DNA of 64,000 nucleotides from Psammoneis japonica (Eukaryota). The notes beneath the pieces were generated by a model. The model worked only from the letters and a program-made list of their open reading frames with translations, made no database searches and was not told where the DNA came from. How positions within the stretch are numbered: position 1 is the stretch's first letter; each line of letters opens with the position of its first letter. Where the stretch lies: positions 553,598-617,597 of the forward strand of contig QPGO01000028.1 of assembly GCA_008632985.1 (NCBI GenBank). The letters run 5' to 3'. Of the stretch, positions 11,441-50,543 are shown in pieces. Position numbers and translations under genes: made by a program.

Positions 11441-12277
11441 TCAAAAGAGAACTTGTGCAGGTCCGCGCAATCTGAACACATCAGCCATTCCACAGTGTGT
11501 AACATGCTTCTTGGCTTCAACATAAACCCCAAGCTTTTCTACCCCATTTGAGTCTCGCAACTTCACAGCACCAGCACCCATGGCGGGATCTGGATGGACC
11601 TTGCAATGGCATGTCTGCAATCCATGCTTCTGGTTGAAAACCCCAACTTTGACCCCAATCTGTTGCAAGAACCTGGGGTCAACGACCGGGAGGAACACAA
11701 GCTTGTCGGTAGGAGGCAAAACTGTTCCGCGTCCATGGTGATGGCTGTGGTGCACTGCACCAGCACAAGGAAAGTTCTGTGTCAAATTAAATGCTGCAAC
11801 ACCGTGGCAGGTGCCATCATTGTGCTTGACAAATGAAAGGGTGCCGCTGTTGCCAGGCTCACCATGGTTGAGGCAGAACCCCACCAAAAGCCATCAGAGC
11901 ATCCGTTGGGGTGATCATTGATGATTGAGCCATTGCAGCTTGAAACGGCACCAAAGAGACCACGTCCAACAAGTTGAGATTGTTGGCTCTCTTCTTGCGT
12001 CTGTGGTGATCAGGGGCTTGCATTCTGGAATTCTGCCATTGGCGGCGTCAATCACAATGATGTTTTTTGATGCAGGGAGTGGATTTTTAAAGTCTCGATG
12101 ACATGGGTTGACCAAGTGCACCCACCCCAAGAACACCCAATTGGCGAATCAATTCCAGCAGTTTGACAAAGACATGAGGTTTGTCTGTTGGTGAATTTGT
12201 TGACATCACCGACAGAGCACACAATGAGCAGCACCAACGATGGTGTTCTTTGCTCCACCAAAATGGTTGAACCACAG
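11441..12277 (-). pseudogene. Decayed, TpA-depleted coding remnant interrupted by the copia element (it appears to continue at about 19335-19750); weak resemblance to a trypsin-like protease GxSG motif
   Basis: Protein-like frame containing GEPGNSGTLSFV...GVAAF. TpA is nearly absent. Identity is uncertain. Confidence 0.3.
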
Positions 12278-12553
12278 TGACAGAAATTGAAGGCAAATGG
12301 CAAGAATTCAAACAACAACTCCTTGCTGCTGTCTAAATGGCAGATGAGTCTCCGCTCAGAGACCGTTGCAGGAGCCGAAAGACGTGCAAGTCGGCATGAT
12401 CGGGCTGCTGTTGTCATTCTTGTGAGCCTTGTGGCTCGAAAGCAAACTACATCGTGCGCAAACGCGCGGAACTAAAGCACACAAAACTGTGCGCGGCAAA
12501 CTAAACAGTGCGCGACATTTCGCGCGCACCCAAATCCTGTTCAAATCCTGTCA
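12278..12553 (-). repeat. 3' LTR of the copia element
   Basis: Direct repeat of 19059-19334 with TG...CA ends. Confidence 0.95.
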
Positions 12554-12559
12554 CTCCCC

Positions 12560-15500
12560 AGTTTGCTTGAGGAGTCACAGAAACAGATTCGACTTCGGAT
12601 GGAATGAAGTTCCAGAACATGAGGGGGCAGAGAAGGTCCCAGATTTGGGAGTGACCCCAATGCTTGCTGAGAATGTCAGCAGGGTTGCGGGAGCCTTCGA
12701 TGAAGTGGAACTCAAGGTGACCAGAGGCGATTGCCTCACGCACACAGTGGAACAACAGTGCGGTGTGTCGCTTGTGTAACTTGGAGTGCGGGATGGTGGC
12801 ACTGTCTACAACTGACTTGTTGTCACCGAACATGTGACTGACATTACGGATCGGGACGCCAAGGTGGCGCAGGGTGATGCGCAGGTCGATGATCTGCTCG
12901 ACACAAGTCCTTGCGGCAACAAATTCAGACCCACAGGTCGCAGTCTCCACGGTGGCTTGCTTCTTAGAGAACCAATCAGCCGGGAATTTGTTGAGGAAGT
13001 GGAGCATTCCCATGACAGAGCGTCCGGTGAGCATGCAATGGTGCAAGTTTGCATCAACGCAGGGGGTGGCAGTGACAAAACTTGCCAAGGGGCAGTGGAG
13101 CATCCTTCGGGATCATCTCTTCTGCTTCGCCGCACACGGAATGCATCCATTCGTGGGCCGGAGCAGGGAGATCCAAACAGTCGGGCTCTTCCGTGCGAAC
13201 GCGGAGAGCGCCGTGTCGCATCTTGGAGAGGCACCCACAGACGCGTTTGGCACGATCCAAGTGGCCTTGACGGGGCGCAGCTCGGAAGCTAGAGAGTGAC
13301 ATGACGGCCGTGGCAATGTCAATTCGACCAAGAGACACTGCCCATTGGAGTGAACCAACAAGGGACTGGAACTTGTGAATGCCATCGGGCTCCAGCAGTT
13401 CGGAAGTGTCCAGTTCGGGGTGGTCACCCTTCTCCAGAGGTGACAGGGCATTGGTGGCAGGTTTCTCCCCAAACAGTCGGGTGCAGCTGTCGACCATGCG
13501 CTCAATGTACTTGCACGGAGACAGGCTCAAGGCACCGTCGGGATCCCGGAAAAAGTCACAACCCAGATGGAACTCAATGGGTCCCGCACCCTTGAGCTTG
13601 AACTTGCACTTTTCCGTGAGAGTGTCGACGAAAGATTGAGGGTCCTTCACAGCAATGGCGAGGTCATCCACATAAACGGCAATGCATTCACAGTGGTCGC
13701 CATTCCTGCGCATCCAAATGTCGGGTTCGGCGCGGCAGGGGAAGAAGCCTTCAGCTCGCAGGCAGTCGGCAAAGCGCTCGTGCCAGCGGAGACCGGAGCT
13801 GCGCAGTCCATGCAGGGCCTTGTGGAAGACAAGGATGTGTCCTTCGAGTTTGCCAAATTCGGGTCCGGCTGCAATGTGGAGCTTCTCCTCAGTGGTGGCT
13901 TCAAGACAGGCATTGCCAATGTCGGTGGCCCATGTCTCCAACTCGTTGAGTTCGGCCAGGAAAATCATCAGCCGAAGGCCACGGAGGGAGACTGCTCCGG
14001 AGTGGACACTGTCGACAGGCACGTCTGTGAGGTGCCCATCAGCTACGAGTCGTGCCTTGTGGCGACCGTCGTGTTTCACGTCGTACACCAGGTGCACTCG
14101 GATCTTCTTGTGTCCGCAGGAGGAGTGGAAGACTCGAAGGGCCCGCAGTCATGGAAGACTTCGTATTCCTCGAGTTGGTCCATCTCGAGATTAGTTGCGT
14201 CTCCCCATTTGCGGTCACCGTTGCGCTCATCTAGTGACATGGCGTGTTCGCAGTTCCGGGGAACTTCGCATCCGCACTTGTGGCGAGGTGCAGTGCGGAA
14301 GGAGCGAAGCTTGGCTTGGTTGGCCATGCGAAATAGCTTCTTTTGGCACCTCGCGATGGTGCGGAACCGCTTCCAGCCATCCGTGTCGAGGAGTCCATTC
14401 TCTCGTGCATAGATGGCGCAGGTGACGGGGTCGTCCTTGGCGATGATGGCAAGAGGCTCGGACATTGTCTCCCCACTTTCCCATTCGAGCATGATGTTGT
14501 AGCTTGAGCCTTTCCAGGTTGGGTCATGAGGCTTCAGAGGTCCTTCGTGTGACACGGTGCGTCGGAATTTCCAAACAGCAGTGTCTTCGTCTTCTTGCTC
14601 AATGTGATTCATGATGTTGTTGCAGGCAAGGACTTCCTCGCATTCGTCATTGTTGACAGAGCAGACGAACTCAGCAAGCTCGGGATTGCCGTTCACTTTC
14701 CATTCATGGTCTTGACGGCCTTGACGATGCGAGCTCTGTGGCGTTGTCCGTCCTCTTGTGGCTGCATGAGGAAGGCACATCCGATGATGTCTTGCGGATT
14801 GAAAACTGGCATCTTGGGTGTCCTGATCTCCCCATCAGGAGAATCGACGGGGTTGTCGTCATGGCGAGATTTGATGATGGGTTCAGGTGGCTCCCCATCA
14901 GGAGGATCAAGACGCAGGTTTCAAACGGCAGGATCGGTGGTGGCGGAGCGTACGTTGGACCGGTGGAGGATCTTCTGAGTCTCGTCAGAGAGAATCTTGA
15001 AGGTCATCTGGTGGCCAACGTGCTCAGCAATGCCAACGAAGCGTCCACGCAACTCACGGGATTCGGACAGCCAATCGGAGTCATCGAGGTGGAAGCACAC
15101 GGGTTCCCACCAGTGAAAGCAAAGCAATGGGCTGATGTCCGGGGTGGAGCCAGTGAGAGTCTCGAGGGGCGTGCGCCAGTGGAGACGTGGGGACGCTGCA
15201 TGGTTGAGCATGAAGCACACATGCATGAGTGCCAGCAGCCATGTGTGGGCGGGCGAACCAAAACGATCCATGACAGTGTTTGCCATGCGCTTCACGGTCT
15301 GGTGTCGACGCTCAGCAAAGTTTTGGTGTTGCTGGTGAGGCTCACTTTGCCAGCTGGAGATGAAGTGGGCTCGCAGGATCCCGAGCACTTTGTTGCTGAT
15401 CTCAACTTGAGCACGGTCGCTAATGAGTTTGGATGGGGCACCACGCTCATGGATCTGATCCTCGAGTGTGTTGACAAACTCTTTGTCCATCTTGGTGCCG

Positions 15501-18117
15501 CAGACGTCAGTGATGGTAGACTCGGTGCCAACAAACAGTTGGGCGCTGGTGCAACCAGAGTCGATGGCGGGGGTGTCGGCACAAACGGTGTCAGTGGCGA
15601 CAGGCTCGTTGCGGCGGTGCACATTAAGGGCGGGGTTGGATGATTTGCAGGCCTTCCTAAGGTGTGTGCCGGCGGGCATGCGGGCGCACTGCGTGGTGCA
15701 GTCAAAAGTGCGACGGACCGCATCGGCAGGTGGGAAGCCAAAGTGGGGCCGAAGAGACTCGAAGGGGGGGTCCTTGGGCTGTGCAGTGCGCTCCGGGGGC
15801 GGAACGTCGTCGTCCTTGTGGTCAATCGCGTGCAGATGACACTCGTAGAACACGTCGTTGTTCGGAATGAGGTGATCATCGAGGGCGGACGCGTGATCGG
15901 CAGACAAGGAAGCGGACATGATGGTCTCGTTGACAATGACACGATGACGGCAGTTGCCGCATTCGTCAAACAGGTTGGCAGTGGGATCGTCCTGTGGGTC
16001 AGAGATCGCGTCGCACCACTGGTCGTCGTCAGTGACAGAGTGATCGAGGATGGAAGGATCCCATGTGTCATCACCGGTGAGGATGACATGGGGCAGGGTG
16101 TCCCATTCGGCGTCAGTGCAAGGTCGCATGGCAACACAAGGCAAGCCGGCCTTGATGTCAATGGGGATGACACAGCCATCAGGAGTGGCAATGTGTTGCA
16201 AGCCGTTGGGCACCTTGACAGAGCAATCGTTGACATCCTGTTTGCACCATTCGAGCTGGCTGCAGGAATGGATTGTCTTGCCCTTGCCCGTGCATGCGTG
16301 CTGATGGAGGATGGCGATGACGGGACCACGCTGGGTCTCAATGACGGCACCAGCGGTGACAACAGGGGTGTCCACCAATTGATGGTCGTCAATGCCCTGA
16401 ACGTCGACTTGGCCCCACGATCGACCAGAGCACCAGTGCGTGTGGAGCAATGAGCAGAGGCAGAGCAAATGACATTGTGGTCATCAACGTGATGGCAAGT
16501 GCGGCCGTTAAGTTCCATGTCATCGGCAGAAGCTGGCGGGGTAGAGGGAGCGGCGGATGGCCCCAATCGACTGGCATTGGGGGCTTGGTTAGGAGACAAC
16601 AGACGTTGCAGATCACCGGGTGGCAGTGGCTTGCGCTTGGTGAGGTGCGCCAGGATGGGATTGTCTGAAGTGGCACCCACATTTGGAGCGGAGTCACCAG
16701 AGTCAGCAGGAGTCGTGTTGGACAAGTTGACATCACCGTCACTCCCAAGGCGTTGGTCGTGAGGGTTGGCCGTAACGGACTCATGGCAGTTGCTGTCTTG
16801 CGGGTTACGGGGAGGCGGACGAGAATGTTCAAGGATGATTGCCTTGGAGGAATGGGGCAACGAATCCCAAATCCGTTGGTGGTCGGGAGGGAGACGTTTC
16901 CATTGGTCACCGGTGAGGCTGGGACCACGGGTGTGGGCAGCATTGGCCTGAAGGACGTCAATGTCACTGTCAATGTCGCAGAACACATCGTTGGACGGTT
17001 CCTCGGAGCAGACGTCGTGTGCGCACATGGTGCGTCGGGGAGCTCGAGGTGTCGTCTTGGGTTGAAACGCACTGTCGTGTTGAGCTGCCGCGGAGAGGAG
17101 CAAGCCACAGTGTTGATCGCATGTGAGGCTCTTGCCACTCTGCGTACGATGCTGATCAGCTTGGTTCTTGACAGCACGGAGTTCCTCGACAGGGTGTGCG
17201 GCATTCTCGAGCATGACGCACTTCTGTCCTTCAGAGAAGTGGTCACTGGCCGGGATGAGTGCCTCGCACTTGCGCAACTGATGTTGCCAATGTAGGATGA
17301 ACCCGTGGGTTGGACCTTTCCAAGTGCCATCACCAAGACGTGCGGTGGCAAGGTACGTTGGCAAGGTGGAGGACTCGACAGATGCGCGGGTGGAGGCGAG
17401 CGCATGCTCAGACAAGGCGCGGTAGACGGTCTGGGCGTCAGAAGACCCCACATTTTCGCGGATGAGAGCCTTGCCCTTGTCGGTGAGAAGGATGCGTTCA
17501 AAGACGGCGAACATGTGCTTTTGCTGTTCAGCAAAGAGCAGTTTGTCTTCGGGGCTGGTCGGTTTGTACGACGAGTCTAGAATGCACTTGACGTCTTGGG
17601 CACGGGCTTGTGCCACAAGTGAGGTGTGCCAAGTGTGCCACTGCTTGTCGGATTTGAGAGCTGTGAAAGCGGTGGGATCACGCTTGATGCCTCGCTTGAA
17701 GTCCCGCACTGGGTCGCGTGCCTTGGTCGGGTTGGTGACATGCGGAGGTGCGAGGGGTGAGCTGCAGATGGACACAGAAGACATGCAGTCAGGGCTGAGG
17801 CGGCAGGCAAGGAACTCGTCATGCGTGAACAATGAGGAGTCATTGGCAACGTCAAGACCTTTGTGTGCTTTGACAATGTGCAGACCAACTGGAGCTGCTA
17901 ACATGTTCTTATAACCACGGGGCAAAGGGATCACATCAGTGCCGTTGTCGCACTCAAGCGAGTCGATTTGGGACGGTGTGAACGTGAACAGTTCTTGATG
18001 CGAGTCCGTGCTGTCTTGGGCCAAAGCCAAACGAAGAGGGCTCCCAGGACCTTGGGCAAGCACGGTTCCAACAACATGCTCGAAACCATCGGTTTGTTGC
18101 TGACGAGTGAGAACCAT
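12560..18117 (-). pseudogene. Copia gag-pol, frameshifted and with pervasive Tyr>Cys/His substitutions
   Basis: Fragments lie in ORFs 15292..18147, 14921..16468, 14076..14780, 13054..14097 and 12501..13103. DIGNACLEA, KALHGLRSSG and ETATCGSEF occur where copia proteins have Tyr. Confidence 0.93.
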
Positions 18118-19058: not shown

Positions 19059-19334
19059 TGACAGAAATTGAAGGCAAATGGCAAGAATTCAAACAACAAC
19101 TCCTTGCTGCTGTCTAAATGGCAGATGAGTCTCCGCTCAGAGACTGTCACAGGAGCCGAAAGACGTGCAAGTCGGCACAATCGGGCCACTGTCATCATTC
19201 TTGTGAGCCTTGTGGCTTGAAAGCAAACTGCATCACGTGCGAACGCGCGGAACCAAAGCACACAAAACTGTGCGCGGCAAACTAAACAGTGCGCGACATT
19301 TCGCGCGCACCCAAATCCTGCTCAAATCCTGTCA
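19059..19334 (-). repeat. 5' LTR of the copia element
   Basis: Direct repeat of 12278-12553. Confidence 0.95.
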
Positions 19335-20064
19335 CACAACAATGTGCATGTTGCTTGTTTGTTGGGGTCAGCACAGTCAAACTGTGGTTGTCAGCACCAA
19401 TCATGGGAATTTCATAAATTCCATTGCAGAGGATCAGCAGCAAGCTTGAAGCTGCAGATCCTTTGCGGCCACTTCAAGTCGGTTGACGGACCCTTCGATT
19501 CGCTTGAGAGACTCAACCATCCATTGTTCAAACCATGTCAATGGCTTGTTGTGTGGACTTGTCAGTGTGCTCATTGCTGCAGCCAGCTACAGAGAAAGAT
19601 GGCAGACCAGAGAGTGACAGCATGGAAATTTGAGTTTTGAGGTTGCTTCAGAAAAGTGCGTTCTGCAAGAGATTGCAGTCTCAATCAAGCTGAGTGCGAT
19701 TCCATGCTGTTTGCAGAGAGCGCTCCGGAGTGTCGCGTGTTGATGGAGTTGCCTTGCAGACTATATTTTGCAACGTCGAGGCGATGACTATTCTAGAGCT
19801 AGAGCGTGATAAACCCAAAACGTTGGTGACAACACGGAACACTGCCGTTTTTGACTGAAGCTTTCCGCGAACTTGGGCCCGCCCAACGTGGGTCGAAAGA
19901 GTCGTATGATTCGTCGCCCCTTTCGTTTCACGGCGGGGTTCGCATCGGAAGATTAATGATGTACAAGAATATGAATACTTTTCAATGATCCCGACGCCGA
20001 AATCAATCGCATCGATGCGTCCGACGCTGTCACAACGAAGAAGAGCACAACAGCAACAAACACC

Positions 20065-23179: not shown

Positions 23180-26100
23180 CTGTGCTAACTTTTCGGGAAC
23201 TCAATTGAAATGTTATCTGACCAAAGGCATTTTGATTTGCACAGTGAAGAGCAGTGCCTTTGGTCAGATGACATTTCAATTGATTTCCCGAGAAGTTGAC
23301 ATTTGAGTGCGGATGGTCGCACAGACTGGCAGCGATTGTTTCTGGCACTCTTCTGCACAATTTGCTTCTGCGCAATGATTCTGAGAGCCGCGATGACTGC
23401 CATTGCCGACGATTGTCGCATGTTTTCGCATGCACAACCTCAAAAATCACAAGATCTCTTGGATCTTGGGTGCAAATGACAGCACATCACAGAATTTGAA
23501 GGGAGCAAACTTTGGCCACGTCCCCGCCCAAGCTTCCCTCTTTCACGTCAATCGCACTTTGACACCACAAAAGGCAGAAACATTGAACAACTGCAGTGCT
23601 GATTGGTTGTGGCAGGGCACATGTTTTTCTCAATGCAGCCATCGAGATGAAGGAGCTGGAGGGAAAAGGGGGCAAGGGGGGGCTTGCCAATTTTCCCATT
23701 GCCGCATGCTTTGAAAAAGCCCCAGAGTCAGAAGGTGAGGAGAAACAAGAAACCAACCATGTTGGCAAAGCATTGTGTCTCTTTGGAGAGGCTCACATGT
23801 GCACAAGCCCATTCATTTTTTTTGCAGGCATGTGGAAGAAGTCCAGCTGACAGGATGAGACGAGCTGAGAGCCAAAAACACTGCAGAACCTTCAGTCACA
23901 AAACGTGCACAATGAATTGTGGATGTCAAGCAGAAGGAGCTTGTTGAGTTCTTTGATTGCACATTTGATGACACATGGTGCCATGAAAAAAGATCCTTGA
24001 GCACATTCTTGCAAGAGTCGCACAAAATGCCCCAACTCTTTATGAGGCGAATGTTGAGTTTGACACAACAGCGACTTCTGTCATGTGCATCGGCACACAC
24101 CAGCTTCTTGTGACAAGCCAAAACAACCTTGCTGGGGGTGATGCTGCCACAAGCAAGTGTGACAAGTGCATTTTTGGGTGGCAGGAACAAGCTGTGAGAA
24201 AGGTGCACACCCAACAACATGCCAGATTTGCCAGCAAAGGTGTTTGAAAGCTTTTTTTGGGGACGGCAATTCACTCATCGGATGCAAGCAACCTGAAGAA
24301 AAATGCATGCCAAGGCAAACACATCTTGACAATTGGAAGAGAGAATTTGGTGGAAGATCTGGCCTTGATGGAAATCACCGCGTGTGTGTGTTTTCCTGAT
24401 TTTTGTGGTGACCTTGAAACCACCAAGAGGATTTGTCCAAAGAACATCCATTTCTGACAAAATTAGACTGTGAAAATGGGGCACTGAACAAAAGGGTGAA
24501 CAGAATGTTTGCTTGTGTGGTGAGTTGTGAAATGATCATGCACGACAAAAGTGTGAGATTGCACCTGTGACTGACATGTGTTGCAACTAAATTGCACAGG
24601 TCTCCTGTGACTGACTGTGCCAACAGTCTGCAATTGTCAAGGATTTGGCATGTCTCACTGACTTCCCACCAAAGTGTTCTGAAGAAGGGGGGTTCCATCC
24701 TGGTTTTGTTTGGAGCTGTCTGTCATGTGGCCTTGCCAGGTTGACATTGCATTGATGTGCCCTTGCCAGATTGTTGACATGGTGTCAATTGGCAAAATTC
24801 TGCAATGCTTGGTGTTGTGTGGTCTTGCCCAATGTTTCAGGAGGCTGGTCTTGTTTGTCACAAAATGGCACCAAACTTCTTGTCAAACAGTGCAAATTGG
24901 TTCTAAACGACTTGGTTGTTGTGTGCTGATGGCATGGTCAGTCTCAGGAGACCTGCCTGATTTGGCAATGGCATGTGCCAGCATTTTCTAGAGCAACCAC
25001 AATGGGATCTTTCAGTGTCTCAAAATGAACATTTGCAACAACAAACAAACTTTCAAAAGGCGTGTTGGCTTCCTGTGCATCTCATTGAGCAAGCAAAAGT
25101 GGCTGGAGCAACTTCTGACAGATGAAGTCAGCCAGCTGCAGCCATGTCTGCAAGGCTCATTTTCACAAGATCAGTCCCATGTGAAAATGTCACAAAAACA
25201 AAAATGTGACCAGTTGAGCCTCAAGGCTGGAGCCAGGAGTGCAGACAACCACGATGGTGGAAACCACAGATGACAATGAAAAGAACACTGCAGCAAAAGA
25301 GGGTTGACAAAAACAAGACAGGCAACCTCATGACTGCAATTTCAACTTGAAAGGAAAAGCCCAAAGAACAATGCATGCAACTTCCATGGATTTGACAGAA
25401 ATGGTCTGTCCAAGTGTCCATCTGAACAATTGTGATGGGAGTTTTGTTGAGCACTGGGTTGACTCATGAGCTGTTTCAAGTCCTGGCAAATTTGAGTGGG
25501 GGTTGATTCCTGAAAAGCATCACACCTCGTTGAACTTGCAGGTGTCTGTTGAGAGACTGGGGCCACAAGGATGTCATGGAGATGGTCAAAGTCTCAGCAG
25601 CAAGTTGGTGAGGGGCTTCACTGAAATGGAAATGACAGCTGATGTGATGTTTGAAGGAAAAGTCAGAGTGAGCCAAACACTGGCAATTGGTTGCATGATG
25701 ATGATTCACTTTGATGTCAAGTGGAAAGGAGGTCACGGACACAGCACTTTGGCCATCAAGAAGGAAGGGAAGTGGTTCAGTCATTGATGCCTGCACAGTT
25801 GATTTTGACTTGTGATGTGCAGAATGAGTGGTGGCCCCTTGGATGTGCACTCGCCTGCAAATCTGACAGCATCTCACATCAATGAATCAATTGCAGCAAA
25901 GATTGCCAACATGCTCACACATTTGGGCTTGATTCAGAATTCTGGCAAATCTTCTCTGGCGCAGCATGTGCACGCAAGATCATGCATTTTCACACACTTT
26001 GCTCCATGTCAATCTGCCAGTCAGCAACACTGCCATGTTTTGCAGAAAAACAACAACGTGACATTGCACTCAGCATCAACAGTGCAGCTGAACATGCAAT

Positions 26101-29100
26101 CAATGCAGAAACTTCCTTGCAACATGCAAGAGTGGGTGTCAGAGTGTGGTTGAAGCTGTGAAACATGTGGCCAGAAAATGCCACATCACTCTCACAACAG
26201 AAATTCTGCAGAGGAATTCTGGAAGAACCCTTGATTCTGGGAGATTGGGTTGTCTTGATTTTGCCAGAATCTTGACATTGCTGCTGTTTTCACAGGGTGG
26301 GACAGTGCAGCCAGAACAGGAGTGCACAACCAAGGTGGTTGCCACATGGTGGTTGTGCAAGCAGTGTTTTCTCAACCTTGATGGAGAGTTCATGGCAATG
26401 GCGGGGCTGGCACGAAACTGCTTTGGACAACAAACTTGAATGAAGATTCCCCTGTGACCCCAATGGCACCGCAGTTGATGCTGTCATCATGACTCAAAAG
26501 CAAAATTTCAAGTTGAAGCTCAGGCCCATGCCACTTGTGTGAACAGAGCAAATGATGGCAATTTTGCCATCAACTGTGCTTGACAAGGACTGTTGTTTCC
26601 ACAACCAGCAATGACTTTGCAATGGATGCATGTTCTTGGGTCCTCTGGGTCAAGGCCCAGAACAATCATGAAGAAGTGTTGGTGCTTGATCATGCCACTT
26701 GAAACATTGACACCAAATTGTTGAACTTGTTTGCAGACACAGCAAAGAAATGCATTGGAAAACTGTCTGCCAATCAGTGTGACAGAGTGGACAGGTGTGT
26801 TGGCCAAACATGTTGCTGCAGCTGATGCTCCTGGACAAATTAAATGAGCTCCAATCTCACGCACTTTGCATCCTGACTTCTCTTTGCCCAGAGCCACTGC
26901 AGCTGCTCTTTTCTTTGCAAGGATGACAGAGGAAGACAGGGGCTGGAGTTTGCCATTGGCAAAGATGGTGCCCGCTGGGGAATTGGGAGCTGCGCCGGAG
27001 CAGGAGGAGACATGGCACATGACCGCCACCCAAGGTTGTGCAGGACAGAGGGAGTCATTGCTTGTTCTGAACATCGTCACTGCATTGTGTTGCCCATTGT
27101 TCTTCTGATGCTTGAAGGTGATTGAGATTGTGCCAGCCAATGCAAGACCTTGGTCAGAGTGGGAGAGTTCCTTGTTTTCTCTGAAGAAGCAAAGATCATT
27201 CAAAACAAGAATTTCAGTGCACCGATTGCCTTTCATCAAAGAGCATTTGCAAGATTGCACTGCAAAGAACCAGGCTCCGACTGTCAGCTGGCTTGTTGCA
27301 ACATGTCCTTGCAGGCAGTTTGGTTTCACAACAAGGCTCGGAGGAGGGAGGCAGTGATCACTTTCTGCTGTTTCTGCTTTCTGTCTTGGTTCTTGCATCC
27401 TCAGCATTGGTGGATCAGAAGGCAAGAGGGTCAACCATCTTTGTCAAGTCTTGGATCCTTCCGGTCATCAAGCCCGAAGGTCAGCGCCACATTGTTCATG
27501 GTGGCTCTGATGGTGTCTGCCACCAGTCAGTCAAATTGATTGGAGGAGCATCGGCCTTCTTGTGTGGAATTCACCAAATGTGACATTCGCAGCTGAGTGA
27601 AAACAAAACCTGATCTCATCTGTTCATTTGCCCAACAATCTTGCACACGAGAGTGTGCAAACTGCTCTGACTCACAGGACCAGCACAACGCCTGGATTTT
27701 GTCTGCATGGCATTTGGCAGAATGAGTGTGCAGAGAGCTGACAACAAACATCAACAACAGCAAAACAACAATGTGGAGTCGGCACAAATGGCAATGACAG
27801 CAAAGCTGTGGTGCAGGTGAGTTGGTGTGATGCCGCAATGCATGCAAGTGCAATGACACATGTGTGCACTCTGTGTGCAGCAAATGGCAGGGATGACGCA
27901 CAGCAATGCAACTTCACGATTGTGACACTCTCTTGGGTGCAACAATCAAATTTGCTGGGTGTGAGCAATCCCATCATTTTGTTGCACACAGTTGTTTGTG
28001 TTTTGTCATTCTTGAGCTGACAAATGTGCCAAATGCTCCAAAAGAATTTGATGAGTCTTTTCAAAGAATGACAACATCAATGCCACCCACAGCACTCAAT
28101 GCACTCATGGCTGCATTGTTTGATTGTCTCCATTCCCTTCATTTCTGTGGTGGCTGAAACTTGCTGCTTGTGCTCTTGAGAGTTGCTGCTTCTGATCTTT
28201 CATGGTTGAAGTGCAAACATCAACAATGCCAGTGTTTGGAATCTTCACAATGCTTTTGCGCACAAAACTCAAAAATGCTGAAGGTGGGGATGAAGATGGT
28301 GAATTGACGTGTTCCAGCCCCAGGCGATGCACAAAACGACAATCCGTTTTGAGCGCAATTTGCTTGCACAAGCTTTGTGTGTTGAGGCTGTTCACTGAAA
28401 TTCTCATGCATTCTGGCTTTTATGTTCAATCAGAGTGTGAACATTTAAAAGATTTTACATCATTGTTCAAGTCTTTGCGACACATGTGTCACAAAACTGT
28501 TGTGTGGAAGAAACAACGCTGACTGTGCGTCAGTGCTCATGCCACAGAAACTTTTGTGCACTCACGTCAACACCACAAAATGGGCACACAAACATTTCAT
28601 GTCATCCTTCAAACAGCAACAGTGTGTGAATCTTCAAAAATTTTGGCCAAAGTCATCCGTTTGCAACTCGTTTGTTGCAACAAAAAAACATTGACCACAC
28701 AAAAACAACGAGACCCCATTGCAACACTGATGCGAGTCTTGTCAGTGTTGCAAAACATTGTTTGCATTTGTGTGAATCCATGCTTTTCATGGTGAAAGCT
28801 TGTTTGCATGTCAGACACCATGCAAAAATTGTGCGAATGTTGTTTTTGTGCACGTTTTCGCTCATGTGCGGCTGGGACACGTCAATTGACAGAGCGCGGG
28901 GAGGAGTGTTGCTGCCAGCCATTTCATTGCCATGCACTGAAGTTGTTTCAAGTGTTGTTGGTCTTAAGCTGACAATGTTTCATGCCACTGCCACCACTGT
29001 CTCCCTCTCCATCTGTCTCTGCTGTGGTTGCCAGCACAAAACACACTTCTGTCACATCGCCAGCACCCACACCAGTGCAACCAGCATCAAGTGAATCTGG

Positions 29101-29480
29101 AGTTCTCAATGGTGAGGAACCTGCTTGTGCCTCCTCAGCCATGCCCAATTGCTGTTGATGCCACAAACTCGATGGCGTGATGAGAAACCAACGTTTGTTG
29201 TTCTTTTGGGGCACTCTGTTGTTGCTGCGGCAACAAGCCTCGCGTGTGTTGTTGTTTTGTCGTGAGTTGCACTGCAACTGGCACCGGCGCGCATCACGCC
29301 GGTTCACGTGTTGGCGGCATAACGTCGAAACTGTTCGGACCGTTGGAACTGTTGATTCAACGATCAACGATCTAAGTGTTCACATGTCATAAATTACACA
29401 GCAGCTCAACGGCCTTCGCCAAAGTGAAAAACACGCGTCACTCCCGGGTTTTTGCGCGCGCCCTCAGCCCTCACCACCAA
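23180..29480. mobile_element. Heavily decayed repeat block, depleted of both TpA and CpG; mostly unassignable
   Basis: TG/CA-saturated sequence with many spurious Cys/His-rich ORFs. Contains a tyrosine recombinase remnant. Confidence 0.7.
26520..27720 (-). pseudogene. Tyrosine recombinase remnant of a DIRS/Ngaro- or Crypton-like element
   Basis: Motifs GAWFFAVQSCKC (from FFAMRSxEY), SITFKHQKN, SLCPAQPW, EIGAHLICPG (from GTHSIRSG) and LIGRQFSNAFLCCVCKQV (from GRWSSDAFLRYIRKQV). Another frame upstream gives LVADTIRATMNNVALTF..DPRLDKDG..KNQDRKQKQQK. Confidence 0.8.
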
Positions 29481-31859: not shown

Positions 31860-32660
31860 TTGCCGCGTGAACCGAATCAGAATTGGCAAACTCGGCGTCC
31901 AATCCAAACGTAAAACACAAGACCCAACCGCGCGGTCGAGCCAGTGACTGGAGGAGCTCTGTGGAAACTGTGTGCTCCTGAAAAGAAGATGAGCATGCCA
32001 GGTTCGGGAAGGATGCTTCTCATTTTATCAACCTTTCCCTCCATGACAACTTCTCTCACAGTGTCGTGACCCTGCGTGTCATTTTTGTCGAGAGTGGATC
32101 GACTCCATGGCACACATTCAAACTCTCCCCCATTTTCGCCATTCTGTTGACAGAGAACTGCAGTGCAGGGACTTTCATCAAAGTGCCAACAAGGCGCCTT
32201 GTGTTTGTCATGTGTCTGGCATGAATGGACAGACCCATTTTCATCGGTCGACCTGCACAGTGGCTTGGCAGCAACCTCCGAAAGAAAGCGCAACAATCGA
32301 TCATCCTCACAAAGTGACATTCCTCATCGATCAACGGTTTCTTCCAATGATTTCCTCCCCCACAAAGGACGTGGATGCATGGGTCATAAAGTTGCGCGGA
32401 TGAGACGGTGGGTGAGCTTCATGATCGCCCTGACATTGCCAGCAGGTGCAGCACTGAGTGGATTCATTTTGCACGGGCACGACAGAATCTCATCCTTGAG
32501 CCGTCGCATCCCATCGGGTGATGCAAAGTTGCGGATCATCATTGCACCATCATCTCGAAGTGTTGTCCGACATTGCTTGAGGATGGTTGTTCTCGAGCAA
32601 AGACCAGTTGAACATCAGGTCGTTCTTGGTGCTTGTTGTGCGTGAGCTCGTTGACATGAT
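31860..32660 (-). pseudogene. 2OG-Fe(II) oxygenase (HalD/BesD/ArpA-like) pseudogene, TpA-mutated
   Basis: Motifs WHFDESP, GGEFECVP and PGMLIFFSGAHSFHRA..VTG..RLGLVF. Upstream frame QCRTTLRDDGAMMIRNF. Probable Tyr positions read Cys or His. Confidence 0.75.
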
Positions 32661-32749
32661 GTTTCGCGGGTTTTTCGGTGTGGCAGGAGCAGTTCAAAGA
32701 TGTGTCAGAACAACAACTAATTCGGTGATCAGAGATTGGGGCTCAACCA

Positions 32750-35575
32750 AGACAATGTGGGCCATGCTGGAGTTGCGACAAGTGCTGGCCAAGTTCCCTG
32801 AGTTGTTTGATGGAAAATTGGGTTGGTGTCCTCACAAGTTGGTCCACTTGGACATTGATCCCGCCACAGTTCCCATCCATGCCCAAGTGCACTCTGTTCC
32901 AAGAGTTCATGAAGAGGTTTTCAAGAAAGAGCTTCAGCATCTTGCTCAGATGAAGGTGTTGAGACCTTGTGGTCCTGCTCAATGGGTGTCTCCTTCATTT
33001 GTCATTCCCAAAAAGGATCAGCGAGTGTGGCGGGCATCTGATTTTTGTGTGCTCAACAATGCCTTAAAGAGGTTGATTTGCCCCTTGCCAAGGATTCAAG
33101 ATGTTTTCAAGAAAAGGAAAGGACACAAGCATTTTGCCAAGTTGGGCTTGTCCATGTTCTGTTGCACCTTGGAATTGGATGAGGAGTCCAAAGAGCTGTG
33201 CACTGTTGCTTGTTGCTCCTTGTGGCAAGCTCCAATGTTGTCAACTCGAGATGGGATTGAAGCCAGCTCCGGACATTGCTCAAGTGGTGATCGAGGAAGT
33301 GTCAAATGGCATGGATGCAGATTGTTTTGTTGATGATGTTGGTCTCTTCTCAATCTTTTGGTTGGAACATTTTGCAACATTGAGTGCTGTGCTGAAACGG
33401 CTGGAAGAAAAGGGTTTGAAAGCAAATCCGCTCAAGTGTGAATGGGCCGTTCAAGAAACTGACTTTCTCGGATGTCAGATGACTCCAGAAGGTGTCAGAC
33501 CTTGCCACCCCACAAAACAACTCTGGAAAACCAAATTTACATAGAAGGAGCACCAGGGCCCCAGCAGAAATGACAAATGAGTCGGGAATGTCCAGAAACT
33601 GTGTAGAATCCATCGTAGAATCAGCGCCAGGGATGTCAAAAAATCATGAAATTCCGGACTCATTTGGCATTTCTGCTGGGTCCCTGGTGCTTCTTCTGCG
33701 TAAATTTGGTTTTCCAGAGTTCTTTTGCAGGGCAGCTTGGAAGAAGAAAGTGGAGGCAGTGCCCAAGCTTTCTCCTCCTAAGAACAACATGCAACTTAGA
33801 TCTTTCATTGGAGCTGTCACTTGCTGTCATGACATGTGGCCTTGGCGATCGCATGTTTTGGCACCATTGACAGAACTGATGGGAAAGCAACATTTTGAGT
33901 GGACACCAGCTTGTCAGAAAGCCTTTGAAGAGATCAAGACCATTGTGGTGGGTGATGTGTTGCTTGCTTGCCCTGATCATGACCTTTCTTTCCAGGTTCG
34001 CACAGATGCAAGCAGCTGTCAGCTTGGCACAATGATCACACAAAATGGCAAGTTGATTGCGTGTTGGTTCCAAAAACTTGTCACAGCCCAGAAGAACTGC
34101 TCTGCTGTGGAAAAAGAAATGCTTGCTGCAGTTCTTTGTTTTAAAGAGCTCCAATCTGTGTTGTTGGGAGCTGACACAACAGCCCACACGGACCACAAAA
34201 ATTTGACTTTCAAGATGCTCAACACGCAACAAGTGCTTTGTTGGTGCCTTTTTCTCAAAGAATTTGCACTCAAGTTCAAATGTGTCAAGGGCAAGGAAAA
34301 CATTGTGGCTGATTTCTTTTCACAATTTCCTCATGTGGAGGAAACCATGGAAGGGAAGAGTTTTTCTAAAGTGAAGTCAAAAGGCACCATTGTTGATTTC
34401 TCTCTTCCTCCAATTGCTGATGCTCCAGAAGACGAGTTGTTGGAAGAAGGTTTGGGTCCCAAGTTGAGCACCTTGTTCTCCTGCACCATTCAAGATCAGG
34501 AGCTGGTGGATTGTTTTCTGAATTGTCCAAGTCCAGAAGAGATTCAGCATCCTCTGAATCATCCTGACATGCAAAACTTTCAGTTTGAAGATCAAGAGCT
34601 GAATCAAGAGCGGCAAAGGAATCCACTTCATTTTCCAACTCGAAATGTTGGCGAAACTCCATTGATTTGTTGGAGGCCTGAACTCAATGCACAAGAGGTC
34701 AGAATGATTGGAAAATTGCTTTGCCAACTGCTGCCTTGTTGCTCCCATTGTCAGGTGGTGTCATCAAGTTTTGTTTCACTGTGGCATGCAGAAGCTCTGC
34801 CACACGATTTGTGTGCATTGTTGTCACACGTTGCTGTGTCGATTGGTCAAAAATTGTCGCTGCAACACGTGCCGAATGAACAACAAGCTCTGGGGAGCTG
34901 GGTGTGGTTTTGTTTGCCACCAAGAGAAGCTCCTTCAGTTCCTTAGGATGAAGTCACTGTTGATTTAATTGGTCCTTGGAAAATGCAAGCACAAGGACAG
35001 GAGGTGGAGTTTGAAGCTCTGGCTGTGATTGATGCTGTTTCTGACCTGGTTGAGTTGGCTCGCATTGACAACAAAACTTCAGATCATGTGCAGATGAAGT
35101 TTGCCAATTGCTGGCCAATGAGATGTCCAAGGCTGAACCATTGCATTCATGGCAAGGGCGGTGAATTCATTGGACAACCATTTCAGATTCCATTGGCGAG
35201 AGCAGGAATCAAGGGCGCAGAGGCCACCACTGAAAATCCTCAAGCCAATGCCGTGTGCAAGAGAATGCATCAAACTGCTGGCAACATTGTTCACAGAATG
35301 GTTGGAGGACATCCTCCACACAATGTGATGGGAGCTCAGCAGATTGTTGATGATGCATTGGCCACTGCCATGCACAGTCTGCAATGTGCCACTTCGAGAG
35401 TTTTGGGCATTTCACCTGGATGGAGCTCCAATCCACCAAAGAGACGTGTTTCATGATTTGCCTCTCATTGGAGATTCAATTGCCATTTGGAGTCATTGAC
35501 AAGTGTTGATTGATGACAACTTGTGCCAACAAAACCTCAAAAGACACATTTTCGACTGTCGTGTTGGGCAACAAA
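32750..35575 (+). mobile_element. Truncated Ty3/gypsy pol remnant (RT-RNaseH-integrase); no LTRs seen
   Basis: Motifs LFDGKLG, WVSPSFVIPKKD, PLPRIQD, LELDEESKELCT, CFVDDV, LRSFIGAV, TDASSCQLG, EKEMLA, TDHKNL, DLIGPW and NPQANAVCKRMHQ. Confidence 0.93.
33505..33735. mobile_element. 231-bp MITE inserted in the gypsy RT
   Basis: Terminal inverted repeats of about 85 bp. 4-bp TSD cttg at 33501-33504 and 33736-33739. Removing it restores aga cct tgg aag (TPEGVRP-WKKKV). Confidence 0.92.
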
Positions 35576-35850
35576 TTTGATCATGACAGACAATGTAAAC
35601 TTCTGCATCACAATTACGTCAGCGGCTGCAAGATTTGGGAGATTCAAATGACCGCCACATCCCGATCACTGGTCAACCCCCATGCGTCATGCGGACGTCA
35701 CTCACCCACCCCGCCCTGCCATTTTGTTTTCAACTGCATTGACGAATGTGATCATGATTTGAAATTAAAACCTGCCGTCATTGTTGGCATGCCCACTTGC
35801 TCGCATCAAAGGCCCCACCAACATTCATCATCATTCTGAGCTTTGTCACC

Positions 35851-38800
35851 ATGGTTTCCTTTTTTGATTCTGACTCAGACGATGACTCCATTGCCTCTGA
35901 TGAATTTGGGTGTTGTCCCACCGATGACGAAGAGGATGACGAAGAGGATGTCTCTGACATCCCCCCACTTGGTCCTCGCATGCACGATCCGGATGAATTG
36001 GATGACGAAGAGGAGGAACTGGCTGTTGATGACGATGACTCCTTGTTTCTTGATGACACCAACGCACATCGCGCCGCCGTTGCTGCTGCTTTACGCAACC
36101 ATGAAGCAGACAGAGAAAATCATGATGACGACAATGGTGGTGGCTGGCACCAAGCCGGTGACCAGTTGTTTGCTGATCGCGAGGAAGAGCAGGACGATGA
36201 CAATGCATCGCTTTGTGATCCAAACAACCTGTGCGACATGCTCAGTGTTGTTGACACCATGTTCGCTGGGTTGGAATCCGATTGGAAAAGCCCCATGGCA
36301 ATGCCCATTGCTCTCGTCATGACCAAGGGAATTCTGCCATCCCAATTTCTGGATGAAGACATCACCGAGTTTTTGGGCGGGGGCCCCAAGGTAAATCTGC
36401 ACAAAGGTGCTCTTGTTCACTTCAACAATGTGAAATGCCCCCCTCCGCCCCCACCTGTCAAGGGATGCAGCAAAGCCAACGTAACATGCAGCACTCTGTG
36501 CGCAGACATCTGCTCTCTCGCCCACACTTCAGGATTCGAAACCACAGCCAATGGGTCGGGCCGCATCCTTTGCCAATTGCACTCACGCAAGAGACACCCA
36601 GCAGACTCTTCACTCAAGCAACTCAGGCAATGTGCATCGCAAGTCGTCTCTTCGAGATGATCATCATCGCAACAATCGCAAGCAAGGAAACAAGAGACAG
36701 CCTCGTCGCACCCAAACCACAAAGTCAATCGGTCCCGAAGACACCTGTGGATGGATTCTCCAAATCAAGAGTGACCAATTTGGGCATCACTTCATTTGTG
36801 GCAATGGTCATTGTTGTCACGAGAACCACATGTGCCGTCTCCCCGAGGAAATTGTTGCCAAGGTCAGACACATTGGTTCGTCGGAGATCACCACCATGAA
36901 GCAAATGAGAAAAGGTCATTTGGGTGCAGGACATGTTCGCAACTACATTCTGGCCAACGAGGATTTTTTTTTGACAAGGTCGCAAATCCAGCACGTGATG
37001 AGAGCAGCTGACAAAGAAAATCTTGCTCCGTTGATTCCCCCAGCTGACGCCACTCTCCAGGATGGCATGATGGAGTTGCAACGTTTCTTTGACAGCTGGG
37101 ACTGCATCGACTGTTGCATGCTCGCAAGTGGCAAACGCCAGTCGGACTCCTGACCGACAGCGAAATCTGCAATTTCAGTCTGCCTTGCTCTTCAATGAAG
37201 TGAGAGTCGACGGCAAAAGACAAGTGCAAGACTTGGAGCAGTTGTGTTCTGACGTGATGCAACAGTGTCAACGTGAGCAAGACTCCTTCAAGCTTCGATC
37301 TTGTGACAATCTTTTCATTGGTTCTGCCTGGACCATTGGTGGTGAGGAACGATTGTTCCGCATGTTGCCTCATGTCGTAAAAGTGAGAAGAGGACGCTCC
37401 TCACATTTTCAGCAAGATCACCGGATGGATTGCACCTCGTTTTCCTGCGTGTCTGCTTGCCGGACCAGACTCAACCCACCTTTCGCTGGGTGTTCCAAGT
37501 CACTCTTCCAACGCTTTTGGACAAGGCTTCCTTGCAACGCATCCACATGATGTTCACCGACGGTGATTCCCAAGAGATTGAAGAGCTTCGTGATGCCATC
37601 CGGAGGCACATGCCGGGAACACACCAAGCAAGATGTGGATGGCACATTGTCGAAAAAGGTTGGACGATGCACTGTCCCGGAGAAAAAAGTGCATCCGCTG
37701 GACCCACAAGGGAACAGTTCAAGCTTTTTGTTGCCACAATGAAGGCGTGGTTGCACTTGTTCATGCATCCTGGTGGATGCAAAAACGAGGAGGAAATGAT
37801 GGTGTCCAAGGCTCTTCTGCTCATGTTCCTTCATTCTCTGCTTGTTCTCCAAGTTTGCGATGGTGTCGAATCAACACCCAGCCGTTTCTTTGTGTTTGTC
37901 CATGGCAAAGTTTTCGACAAGGAAGCGAGTTACGCCCACTGCAAAAAAAATGGATTCAACATTATGAAGAAGCAAACAACTCGAGTCATGAAGGAACAAA
38001 TTTTGGCATGAAAAGTCACGCCACGCCAGTCCATCCGTCGCAAAACCTTGCAACTGGTGCAACCAATCTAGCCATGCAGTCGGATGTGAAGGTGGCGGAA
38101 TTGACCAGGGAATCAAGCAGGATGGCGCACACACGGTGCCTTTGGTCAAAGCTCCCAACAGCCAATCACATGCTGACAAAGTGTGAGGGCATGCTGGCAC
38201 AATGTTGGAAGGCCGTCCATTTCTATGAGATTGGGCGAAGGCCGAACCCTCAAGGAATTGATCCCAACATTGCAGTTTGGGAAGTGGTTTGCAAAGCACC
38301 AAGCAAAGAAGAAGGAACAAACTCTCAAGGAGACCCAGAAGACCAAGCAAGGACGGATCAAGAATGTGTCGATGAGGTTGGCAACCCATTCTTCAAGTGC
38401 ATGCCGAAGTTCCGCCGGGTTCATGTTGCAAGAATGGACGGAGCGTGTGTCCTTCATTGCACCTGTGCTGAGTTCCAACGCACAGGCATGGGATGCATTC
38501 ACCAGATGTCCACAATGAAGCACGAGTTGGGGAACCAATTTAAAGGTTTCTCTCATCATGACATGTCCATCGCATGGTGGCACAAGCACTTCCACCATGC
38601 GTTCAGTGGAGACAAGCATGTGGATGGGCTTGACGACATTTTCGAAACGTTGTTGGACAATGACGTAAAGGGTCCCCAGATGCCGGATCACTTTGATGCG
38701 TCCATTGCACCTGAGCCATCCACCTGTGATGAGTCTGCATTTGATGCTCCCCATGATGTCATGTCCTCTTTGACGAACTGCTCAGTGGAACAAGCAAAGC

Positions 38801-39282
38801 TTGCTGTCGATTCAACCATGCCTTTGTTCAACACCGCTGCCACTGGGTTTTCACAAATGTCGAACGTCAACACAAACGATGACGACAATGAAGAAGACCA
38901 AGACCTTGCGTTTGGTTTTCTAGAGGAAGCTTGTCAATCCGGATGTGAAGCATGGTCTCAAAACTTCCATCAAGAAGTGGTTGCAATTGCGGACCAAAGT
39001 GTGCGGAACATTTTGGTGCCCAGGATTAACACCCTCGCAGGGTTGTTTGAATCTCAAGATGTGTCATCTGTGGACATGCCAGATGTTGCACCCTTGGCTA
39101 CGATGACAGACAAGATGATTGCAGACATGCGGGGCAAGATGCACTCTCTGCGTCTTCCTTCGTCGATCCGGGATGAGGATGACACACCTCATTGGGTGTC
39201 GAATTGTTCCGAGAGAGACACCAAGTGCCGACACACACACACATGCCGCAATGGTCTAACTGAATGGCAACACACACAGTGA
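35851..39282 (+). pseudogene. Mutator-like (MULE) transposase with SWIM zinc finger, disrupted
   Basis: Motifs FIGSAW..EERLFRMLPHV, FRWVFQVTLPTLL, MFTDGDSQEI, ARCGWHIV, NNSSHEGTNFGMK and SWIM CTCAEFQRTGMGCIH. Several frameshifts. Confidence 0.85.
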
Positions 39283-39329
39283 CAAATGCAAATGTTTGTT
39301 GCAAGTGCAACACACACTGACAGAACGAG

Positions 39330-49400: not shown

Positions 49401-49494
49401 CAAGAAACATCTTGGTGATGAAGTGCCAGCAGAGGATCATGCCAATGCTGCAATGAAATGTCAAGAAGAGAAACAAGCAGAAAATCAATGGTGA
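46458..49494 (+). pseudogene. Decayed duplicate of the SRPBCC gene at 60510-61049, including its upstream region, split by an insertion of about 2.25 kb (about 46859-49111)
   Basis: 46458-46858 aligns with about 60291-60681. About 49112-49494 aligns with about 60683-61045. Confidence 0.9.
46928..48430. repeat. Interleaved inverted repeats A-B-A'-B' inside the insertion
   Basis: A (about 46928-47470) is the diverged reverse complement of about 47695-48250. B (about 47500-47665) is the reverse complement of about 48260-48430. Confidence 0.8.
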
Positions 49495-49957
49495 GGAAGC
49501 ATTCCATCAAAATCTGCTGACTTCAGCTGTGCAAGTGCAGCCCATCTGCTCCAAGGTGCACTGGGGTTTTTGACTCAGATGACCTTCAAAAGAGGAAAGC
49601 CAATGACATTCTTGATCTCATGCAAAGCTTCATGGAACAGCCAAGTGTTCTTAACTTGCTGACATGCCCCCATTTCTGATGTGCAGCTTTGAGACATCAA
49701 GCTGTGCAATGCCCAGAGGCTTTGGCTTGCTCTGGATTTGAAAGCCAACTTTCAATTTGGCAGTTCTGGGGCTCTTTCTTCATTGCATCAAAGTCACATT
49801 TTTGGGGACTTGAAGCACATGAGAATGAACTTCAGGTGTGAACCAGAACAAGTGACTTGAGACTCTGGAAATCTGACTTGTTTGCAAGGAGGTGCATTTG
49901 TGCAAGAGCGTCTGGGGTGTTTTCATCAAAAGTGGATTTTTCCAATCAACTCTGGCT

Positions 49958-50216
49958 GGCCTGTTCCAGCTCCAGGTGATCTGCTTTTCATCACACGAGA
50001 GGCCGATTTTCTGTGCAGTTTGGCGCAATTGACTCCTTCAATTTTGATGGTTTCGAAAATCAAAAGGTGAGTGCACACCCAAAAATGCATGCAAAGTGTG
50101 CACTTGCCCTTTGATTTGGCAAAAAACGGATTGGAAAAAGTCAATTGTGCTGAATGCACAAATTGCCAAATGATGGGAATCGAGCCCGCGCGGAGCACCT
50201 GGAGCTGGAACAGGCC
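49958..50216. mobile_element. MITE, copy 1 (259 bp)
   Basis: 21-bp TIR ggcctgttccagctccaggtg. 4-bp TSD ggct at 49954-49957 and 50217-50220. Confidence 0.9.
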
Positions 50217-50543
50217 GGCTGGTGGGCACTCAAGAGAGCTTGTCATTGTCACAGAGTGATTTGCTGCTGGCTCTTGTGCACCTTCCTGCATCTTCTCTAC
50301 ATGTGTGCTGTCATTTCCAATTCTGCCACATTGTCTGCTGTCAGCATCACCCCATTTTCAGGAGCCAATTTTGCCTTGGGTTCAAGACAAGCTGCAGTGC
50401 ATTTGGCAGCCTTTGCAACACCTTGTTTTCTGTTGACTGCTGCAAATCCAACTAGAGTGTGCATGTTTTTGCCACCCTTGTCTGTTTCAACCACTGCTTG
50501 CTCTGTGAGCAGCAGGCAGGCCATCTGTTCTGATTGTTCCCCT

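Follow-up and report, generated by a model that had tools for sequence, protein, structure and literature searches.

Transposon proteins encoded in a 64,000-nucleotide stretch of the genome of Psammoneis japonica (assembly GCA_008632985.1, contig QPGO01000028.1, positions 553,598 to 617,597 of the forward strand; hereafter the window, numbered from its first base) have lost nearly all of their tyrosines, mostly to cysteine and histidine. The element analyzed in most depth is a complete but dead Ty1/copia retrotransposon with long terminal repeats (LTRs), which lies on the minus strand and contains the protease-integrase frame singled out in the initial annotation of this DNA. In the proposed process, 5'-TA-3' would become TG or CA through A:T to G:C changes on either strand. 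Because both tyrosine codons are TAY, such changes replace nearly all tyrosines in transposon proteins with Cys (TGY) or His (CAY). The dinucleotide specificity of the change, its restriction to transposon blocks, its timing after insertion and its coding consequences are observed directly, and we consider it very probable that they reflect a mutation process acting on the chromosomal DNA of transposon domains and turning TA into TG or CA, alongside ordinary CpG decay. Tyrosine erasure is the protein-level read-out of this transposon-directed, TA-erasing DNA process, for which the literature offers very little so far and, in this lineage, nothing.

The protease-integrase frame (14921..16480, minus strand, 519 amino acids from stop to stop) contains a single Tyr (0.19%), in agreement with the initial annotation, together with 24 Cys (4.62%) and 33 His (6.35%), against means of 3.68% Tyr, 1.34% Cys and 3.62% His over 120 relatives of the frame. 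The lowest tyrosine content among 240 copia relatives is 2.28%, and the chance of at most one Tyr in a frame of 519 residues at the family mean is about 1e-7. The sole Tyr (TAC at 15845-15847) occupies a column that is Tyr in only 29% of the relatives. When the frame is aligned with 60 relatives, 16 columns are at least 50% Tyr, and the window has 10 Cys, 4 His, 2 Phe and no Tyr in them. The short motifs that had been quoted as carrying Cys or His in place of a family Tyr were all found on the minus strand, among them HQHAC (16292-16306), ATDTVC (15581-15598), GNACLEA (13897-13917) and KALHGL (13804-13821) in the copia element and AFLCCVCKQ (26727-26753) in a separate recombinase frame. The corresponding columns are indeed Tyr in the relatives: 58/60 for DGCVIP, 48/50 for the first His of HQHAC, 50/60 for TDVCG, and 60/60 for both GNACLEA and KALHGL. 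The weakest of the proposed columns is that of EWCK, where Tyr (26/53) is nearly matched by Phe (21/53).

The same loss extends over the whole copia polyprotein, which we aligned with 60 of the 89 relatives of at least 1600 amino acids. Of 62 Tyr columns, the window keeps 9, the remainder reading Cys (31), His (16), Phe (5) or Trp (1), whereas 941 of 1137 non-Tyr columns are kept (Fisher test against the Tyr columns, p = 2e-29), with retention between 62% and 93% for each residue type. Even among the ten columns with Tyr in 60/60 relatives, six read Cys or His and one Phe, and three are kept. Arg (CGY) occurs at no Tyr column of the copia element, as expected if the process requires an intact TA; one Tyr column of the gypsy element described below does read Arg. 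Seven of the nine surviving conserved Tyr codons are clustered at 14083-14501 and 17353-17568, and the 500-bp bin 14001-14500 has an observed-to-expected ratio (O/E) of TA of 0.32, against 0-0.2 elsewhere in the element.

A family baseline was obtained from 79 related copia loci, which were recovered by a metagenome scan using an alignment of intact relatives; a metagenome scan with the window's own frame, the peptide words of which contained the mutated Cys positions, returned no match. TA O/E in these loci has a median of 0.70 (range 0.01-1.00), compared with 0.13 in the copia coding region of the window, and 77/79 loci keep 71-97% of 53 Tyr columns, of which the window keeps 8. Since 77 of the 79 loci are normal, low TA is not the native composition of the family. 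The initial annotation had named Cys or His at these positions in active family members as the observation that would overturn its reading; the relatives have Tyr there. The two exceptional loci are L051 (match 5-2617), with a TA O/E of 0.01 and 1 of 32 Tyr columns kept (8 Cys, 12 His), and L042 (match 1-2759), with a TA O/E of 0.31 and 16 of 35 kept (10 Cys, 6 His). Both are environmental contigs of other copia lineages (about 66% DNA identity to the window element) and, judged by their sequence, are apparent targets of the same process. Furthermore, P0364, a public predicted homologue of the recombinase (402 amino acids), lacks Tyr altogether, with Cys in 3 of 5 Tyr-majority columns; thus, Tyr-erased transposon frames are already present in public protein sets.

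The attribution of the tyrosine loss to TA>TG/CA changes is borne out by a codon-anchored comparison of dinucleotides with the 77 related loci, restricted to positions where at least 60% of the loci agree. At the 52 conserved TA positions, the window reads TA at 8, TG at 28, CA at 13 and TT at 3. Each of the other 15 dinucleotides is kept at 61-96% of its positions (933/1166 in total; p = 4e-22 against TA). All 52 conserved TA positions are Tyr codons, because TA is conserved across the family only there.

Across the window, TA O/E calculated in 500-bp bins reveals five transposon blocks with sharp edges and values of about 0-0.2, separated by gene regions with values of 0.4-0.9. Block 1, comprising the copia element and TA-poor flanks, covers about 11500-19500 (0-0.2 in most bins); block 2, 23400..29400 (0-0.18); block 3, with the gypsy element, a MULE-like frame and others, 32000..42000 (0-0.2); block 4, 46800..52500 (0-0.12); and block 5, 55500..60000 (0-0.26). 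Inside the blocks, TG and CA O/E are raised to 1.4-1.9. CpG decay is superimposed on this pattern: it explains the R>C and R>H changes in the copia element and the low CpG of blocks 2, 4 and 5, with CG O/E mostly 0.08-0.57 in block 2 (0.91 in its last bin) and 0.07-0.52 in block 5. The heavy loss of Arg to Gln, His, Cys and Trp in the older gypsy element, where 13/35 Arg are kept, is likewise assigned to CpG decay.

The initial annotation had extended the pattern to a gypsy pol and a tyrosine recombinase, and both show it. The degraded Ty3/gypsy pol (reverse transcriptase (RT), RNase H and part of the integrase; 32770..35577, plus strand), delimited in four pieces by tblastn of 60 relatives and supported by an RT_RNaseH_2 match (E = 3.4e-20), keeps 0/23 Tyr columns, which read 15 Cys, 2 His, 2 Phe, 2 Trp, 1 Leu and 1 Arg. 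The degraded tyrosine-recombinase-like frame (26520..27443, minus strand, 307 amino acids), for which 934 relatives were found at E <= 0.001, is devoid of Tyr and keeps 0/6 Tyr columns. The consensus of its relatives reads H-S-x-R ... G-R-W-S-S-D-A-F-L-x-Y-I-R, and the near-invariant Tyr of this consensus, present in 68/71 relatives, aligns with the second Cys of AFLCCVCKQ, now TGT at 26739..26741. We presume this residue to be the catalytic one from the known motif of tyrosine recombinases, aided by PF00589 matches in 2 of 7 recombinase relatives tested, both below the cut-off of that family. In addition, the Arg of the H-x-x-R motif (71/77 relatives) is TGT (Cys) in the window, at 26835-26837. 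A MULE domain (PF10551, 37346-38011, plus strand, E = 4.1e-7) lies in bins with a TA O/E of 0.03-0.09, which implies that a DNA transposon is affected in the same way as the retroelements. More generally, all 19 open reading frames (ORFs) of at least 200 amino acids inside the transposon blocks bear the predicted low-Tyr, Cys- and His-rich signature, with 0-1.19% Tyr against 1.03-6.42% in ten host-like ORFs.

The claim that these proteins are degraded by Tyr>Cys/His changes rather than by stop codons is also supported. Enumeration of all hexamers demonstrated that, whatever the codon phase, a stop never results from TA>TG/CA, which instead removes TAA (giving CAA) and TAG (giving CAG or TGG), whereas CpG decay yields a stop only through CGA>TGA, and changes of the type caused by repeat-induced point mutation (RIP) give TAA and TAG from CAA, CAG and TGG. 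The copia coding region contains a single in-frame stop, a TGA (14921..14923, minus strand) at a position where the consensus of the relatives is Arg, which fits CGA>TGA by CpG decay. In the gypsy pol, stops are found at 34944 (TAG, consensus Trp) and 35497 (TGA, consensus Arg). Because no stop can arise from the TA change, reading frames remain largely open despite dense missense changes. Three Trp columns, which read CAG at gypsy 33476-33478, CAG at recombinase 26763-26765 and TAG at gypsy 34944-34946, fit the succession TGG>TAG>CAG and suggest that nonsense mutations were later erased by the TA process. Over all six frames, stops per kb in the blocks and outside them are 4.4 and 16.7 for TAA, 2.4 and 16.1 for TAG, and 49.0 and 37.0 for TGA; total stop density is only about a fifth lower in the blocks, so that any excess of long spurious ORFs is not to be overstated.

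The LTR pair of the copia element dates the change relative to insertion. The 3' LTR (12278..12553) and the 5' LTR (19059..19334), both on the minus strand, are 276-bp direct repeats with TG...CA ends, and differ at 17 of 276 bases: ten of these fall in six TA-derived sites, six are CpG-type and one is of another kind. Four of the TA-derived sites are double sites at which one LTR has TG where its partner has CA, implying that both arose from TA by independent changes, and two are TA in one copy and TG or CA in the other. With 16 of 17 mismatches at TA-derived or CpG sites, the change postdates insertion. At all four TG-versus-CA sites, the same LTR has TG on the plus strand. Counted as site-copies changed since insertion, at least 10 of 16 detectable TA sites have mutated, compared with 6 of 42 CpG sites, and hence, site for site, TA mutation has outpaced CpG decay at least fourfold in this LTR pair.

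Other copies of the element point the same way. When the contigs of the only available sample were aligned, in 12,113 pieces, the summed depth, which is not a copy number, was 5e4-2.7e5 over the copia element, and the depth was 51-62 in the left flank and 26.7 over 19346-19600; the contrast between a flank depth of 27-62 and that of the element indicates a copia family with many diverged copies. In run X1, 288 of the 327 differing places are transitions. Of 349 variable sites, the 40 with the best support include 34 transitions within TA, TG, CA or CG, and at five places TG in some copies stands against CA in others. Cys is present in other copies at codons that are His (17110-17112 and 13153-13155) or Tyr (14083-14085) in the window.

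The loss of TA extends beyond the element itself. The left flank (11540..12277) has 3 TA in the 737 bp after 11540, up to which TA density is normal, and the right flank (19335..19762) holds 2 in about 430 bp, TA density being normal again from 19762 on; TA loss therefore runs about 740 bp to the left and about 430 bp to the right of the target-site duplication before an abrupt return to normal. A Pfam scan of these flanks detected no family at E <= 1 except one chance-level match. Together with the LTR pair, the other copies and the MULE-like region, the flanks suggest that targets are chosen by domain and not strictly through repeat homology.

Regarding the sequence context, the initial annotation predicted a gain of both Cys and His; both are present, and the enrichment of His is the weaker one. 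Cys exceeds His by 46 to 18 across the Tyr columns of the copia and gypsy elements (p = 6e-4), which lie on opposite strands. The survival of TA-x trinucleotides in the blocks relative to outside, with strands pooled, is 0.27 for TAA, 0.15 for TAG, 0.10 for TAC and 0.04 for TAT; measured against the family baseline, it is 0.15, 0.19, 0.16 and 0.03, respectively, and in the half-mutated L042, 0.32 for TAY and 0.42-0.48 for TAR. A preference set by the 3' neighbor fits the excess of Cys over His at least as well as a strand bias does, and TAY appears to be a moderately favored target. The share of His increases with the base preceding the codon in the order that such a preference predicts, 0.18 for T, 0.24 for C, 0.31 for G and 0.42 for A, on small numbers, and the Cys:His bias falls to 18:10 where a purine precedes the codon. 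Two further candidates were rejected. Strand-coordinated runs of TG and CA are unsupported by runs tests (z from -0.23 to +1.86 in blocks and from -1.06 to +0.55 outside), a hand count of Cys/His order along the copia element (17 runs, about 22 expected) being suggestive at most. Transcription-strand asymmetry as the source of the Cys excess is not borne out by raw TG and CA counts in the copia block, which do not favor TG on the sense strand.

As to chemistry, our best guess is that a tRNA-adenosine-deaminase-like enzyme would deaminate adenine to hypoxanthine, which is read as G, following some form of recognition of the transposon domain, and that the process might serve as a genome defense. 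tRNA adenosine deaminases act on A34 after the universal U33, that is, in a 'TA' context, and the substrate of TadA is U-A-C. Alternatively, the same process could attack thymine, through a modified base resembling 5-hydroxymethyluracil at TA that pairs with G, or through error-prone repair. TA being self-complementary, T>C on either strand gives identical TG and CA products, and the weak 3'-neighbor effect, which is readable as a T-A-Y preference for adenine, can equally be read as an R-T-A preference for thymine. Nevertheless, adenine deamination is the sole published hypothesis (Mettrop et al., bioRxiv 10.64898/2026.01.13.699255), and we regard thymine chemistry as rather unlikely.

An origin in RNA, in which transposon transcripts are hyperedited from A to I, reverse-transcribed and inserted in an already mutated state, would account for A>G and T>C on both strands, as expected from editing of double-stranded RNA, and two of the three elements tested are retroelements. 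However, a single template gives rise to both LTRs of an insertion, and yet the two have six TA-derived differences, four of them TG against CA. Moreover, the MULE-like region, which has no RNA intermediate, is equally TA-poor, as is the low-depth DNA outside the target-site duplication, and near-total loss of a single dinucleotide exceeds the neighbor specificity of ADAR. We therefore judge prior RNA editing to be very improbable.

We give hardly more than slight credence to an artefact of sequencing or assembly, such as the systematic misreading of a base modified at TA in silent chromatin. All runs come from one sample, possibly the source of the assembly itself. However, the same pattern occurs in the two unrelated metagenome contigs, the public protein P0364 has no Tyr, TG or CA occupies the same site in different copies, and CpG decay, a genuine evolutionary mark, is also present in the older blocks. 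A general pressure from AT to GC, such as GC-biased gene conversion in repeats, is similarly implausible. It would be in line with the high G+C of the copia element and with some A>G and T>C changes in contexts other than TA, such as TG>CG, but not with the retention of AA (78%), TT (84%) and AT (61%) compared with TA (15%), nor with older blocks that have a G+C of 0.44-0.49 and yet a TA O/E of 0-0.1. Finally, although TA is mildly low in the family (the median given above) and in host genes (0.4-0.9), we all but dismiss a native origin of low TA and low Tyr in codon bias or selection against TA, given the Tyr retention of the 77 loci, the lack of Cys at these columns among the 12 loci listed, the absence of any of 240 relatives below 2.28% Tyr, the same loss in three unrelated element classes, and four frameshifts that make selection on the copia protein implausible.

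Several observations weigh against a TA-directed process on chromosomal DNA, or limit how far it can be taken. The G+C content of the copia element, 57% as against about 47% in its surroundings, is, on a rough estimate, more than TA loss alone explains, and the window reads CG at 20 of 85 family-TG positions, a T>C change that the TA rule does not cover. Instead of recording a spread of the process, the flanks may be remnants of old single-copy transposons. The closest DNA relative found is 69% identical, so that the directions of change rest on the family consensus, the logic of the LTR pair and other copies; the sequencing runs with this stretch are four, all from one sample and none of them listed as RNA; and, with the best 40 of 349 sites seen, Tyr>Cys/His changes common to all copies could predate amplification. 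The initial annotation called the route an efficient inactivation, and loss of Tyr would then be what inactivates the elements. As caveats to that reading, the copia element also carries the four frameshifts, which may have come before or after the Tyr loss, and the Tyr of the RT 'YVDD' motif survives (TAT at 13672-13674).

The copia element has the architecture typical of its superfamily. Its LTRs with TG...CA ends are bordered by a 5-bp target-site repeat (CACAG at 12273-12277 and CACAA at 19335-19339, 4/5 match), and the degraded coding region for gag, protease, integrase, RT and RNase H (12609..17541, minus strand) was delimited by tblastn with full-length relatives. The pieces comprise gag (16411-17541), protease-integrase (14711-16408), a linker (14142-14714), RT (13075-14115) and RNase H (12609-13091), and their distribution over five frame segments implies the four frameshifts. 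RVT_2 (PF07727) matches the RT at 13054-14148 (E = 2.8e-25), and the integrase lies upstream of this RVT_2-type RT, which is the Ty1/copia order. A Pfam scan of the integrase frame detected no family at E <= 0.01; because intact relatives mostly lack a precomputed integrase domain too, this miss is not an effect of mutation. The nearest named relative of the element is a hypothetical protein of the diatom Epithemia, and the nearest named relatives of the copia and gypsy elements together are from raphid diatoms (Epithemia, Nitzschia and Mayamaea), which marks the genome as probably that of a diatom. A 980-amino acid open frame (15292-18234, minus strand) consists of the gag frame continuing out of frame across the integrase and is a stop-poor false ORF. 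Elsewhere in the window, a host ORF (982-7710, plus strand) of 2242 uninterrupted amino acids has a Rav1p_C domain, a weak SH2 match and normal TA, with no intron apparent.

Among known systems, RIP of Neurospora and other ascomycetes is likewise dinucleotide-specific, directed at repeats and transposons, active on DNA in place and prone to leak into neighboring DNA. Its direction is CpA>TpA, which raises TA and A+T, whereas here TA is destroyed (O/E 0-0.2), the G+C of the copia element is up and no stops arise, so that the window does not show the hallmarks of RIP. CpG decay of methylated transposons, by deamination of 5-methylcytosine, gives the same TG and CA products in the same blocks, but it acts on another dinucleotide and is slower here; it accounts for the R>C/H/Q changes and the CGA>TGA stops. 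Hyperediting by APOBEC3 (G>A) and ADAR (A>G) is driven by deaminases, depends on context, is aimed at mobile elements and takes place on replication intermediates, and APOBEC3G makes TGG>TAG stops. These activities would give LTRs that are born alike, in contrast to LTRs that diverged in place and a change that makes no stops.

The closest parallel is the chlorarachniophyte Bigelowiella natans, where TpA>TpG/CpA changes arose de novo in some mutation-accumulation lines (Mettrop et al., bioRxiv 10.64898/2026.01.13.699255). Their targets are integrated giant-virus and virophage DNA, the rate is about 1000-fold above background, and an ADAT2-like enzyme has been proposed as the deaminase (10.64898/2026.01.13.699255). 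The two cases share a change from TpA to TpG or CpA in which only A:T>G:C occurs, restriction to bounded non-host DNA, and loss of TpA with gain of TpG and CpA; in the window, such changes are confined to bounded blocks, and host-like ORFs have normal Tyr. The Bigelowiella case concerns new mutations with mild depletion (Rho TpA of 0.45 in a viral region) in viral DNA, in contrast to a saturated historical signature (O/E 0-0.2) in LTR retroelements, a recombinase element and a MULE-like region here. In the main text of the preprint, the words tyrosine, stop codon, missense, trinucleotide and diatom do not occur. RID-related DNMT4 enzymes of unknown function are reported in diatoms by a paper on diatom DNA methyltransferases, and a term search of its main text found neither TpA nor deamination. 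Full-text literature searches turned up no account of diatom transposons losing TpA, nor of tyrosines being erased to Cys or His.

To conclude, this work adds a family baseline of 79 loci, confirmation in three element classes that includes the presumed nucleophile of the recombinase, and the enumeration demonstrating that no stops arise, as well as the LTR rate comparison, the hint of a T-A-Y context and the TA-poor flanks. A screen of proteins alone is possible, with Tyr near zero, Cys raised and His less so; this signature picked out the two environmental contigs and P0364. Dead transposons will present gene finders with frames poor in stops, Tyr-erased frames make profile searches less sensitive, and LTR-based insertion dating is badly inflated: only 1 of 276 bases differs outside TA- and CpG-derived sites, so that age is overstated many-fold. 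More tentatively, and with doubt outweighing confidence, diatoms might possess a DNA adenine deaminase, perhaps descended from tRNA adenosine deaminases, that is directed to chromatin domains and favors T-A-Y. It would provide a defense mirroring RIP, common to or convergent with that of Bigelowiella and perhaps widespread in stramenopiles, alveolates and Rhizaria, which would kill transposons by erasing Tyr, including the recombinase nucleophile, and, by removing stops, would leave open Cys- and His-rich frames that contaminate proteomes and are possible gene seeds. If the TA-directed process is true, it would constitute a second kind of mutational genome defense in eukaryotes, with a chemistry opposite to that of RIP, in print so far as one 2026 preprint on an unrelated alga.

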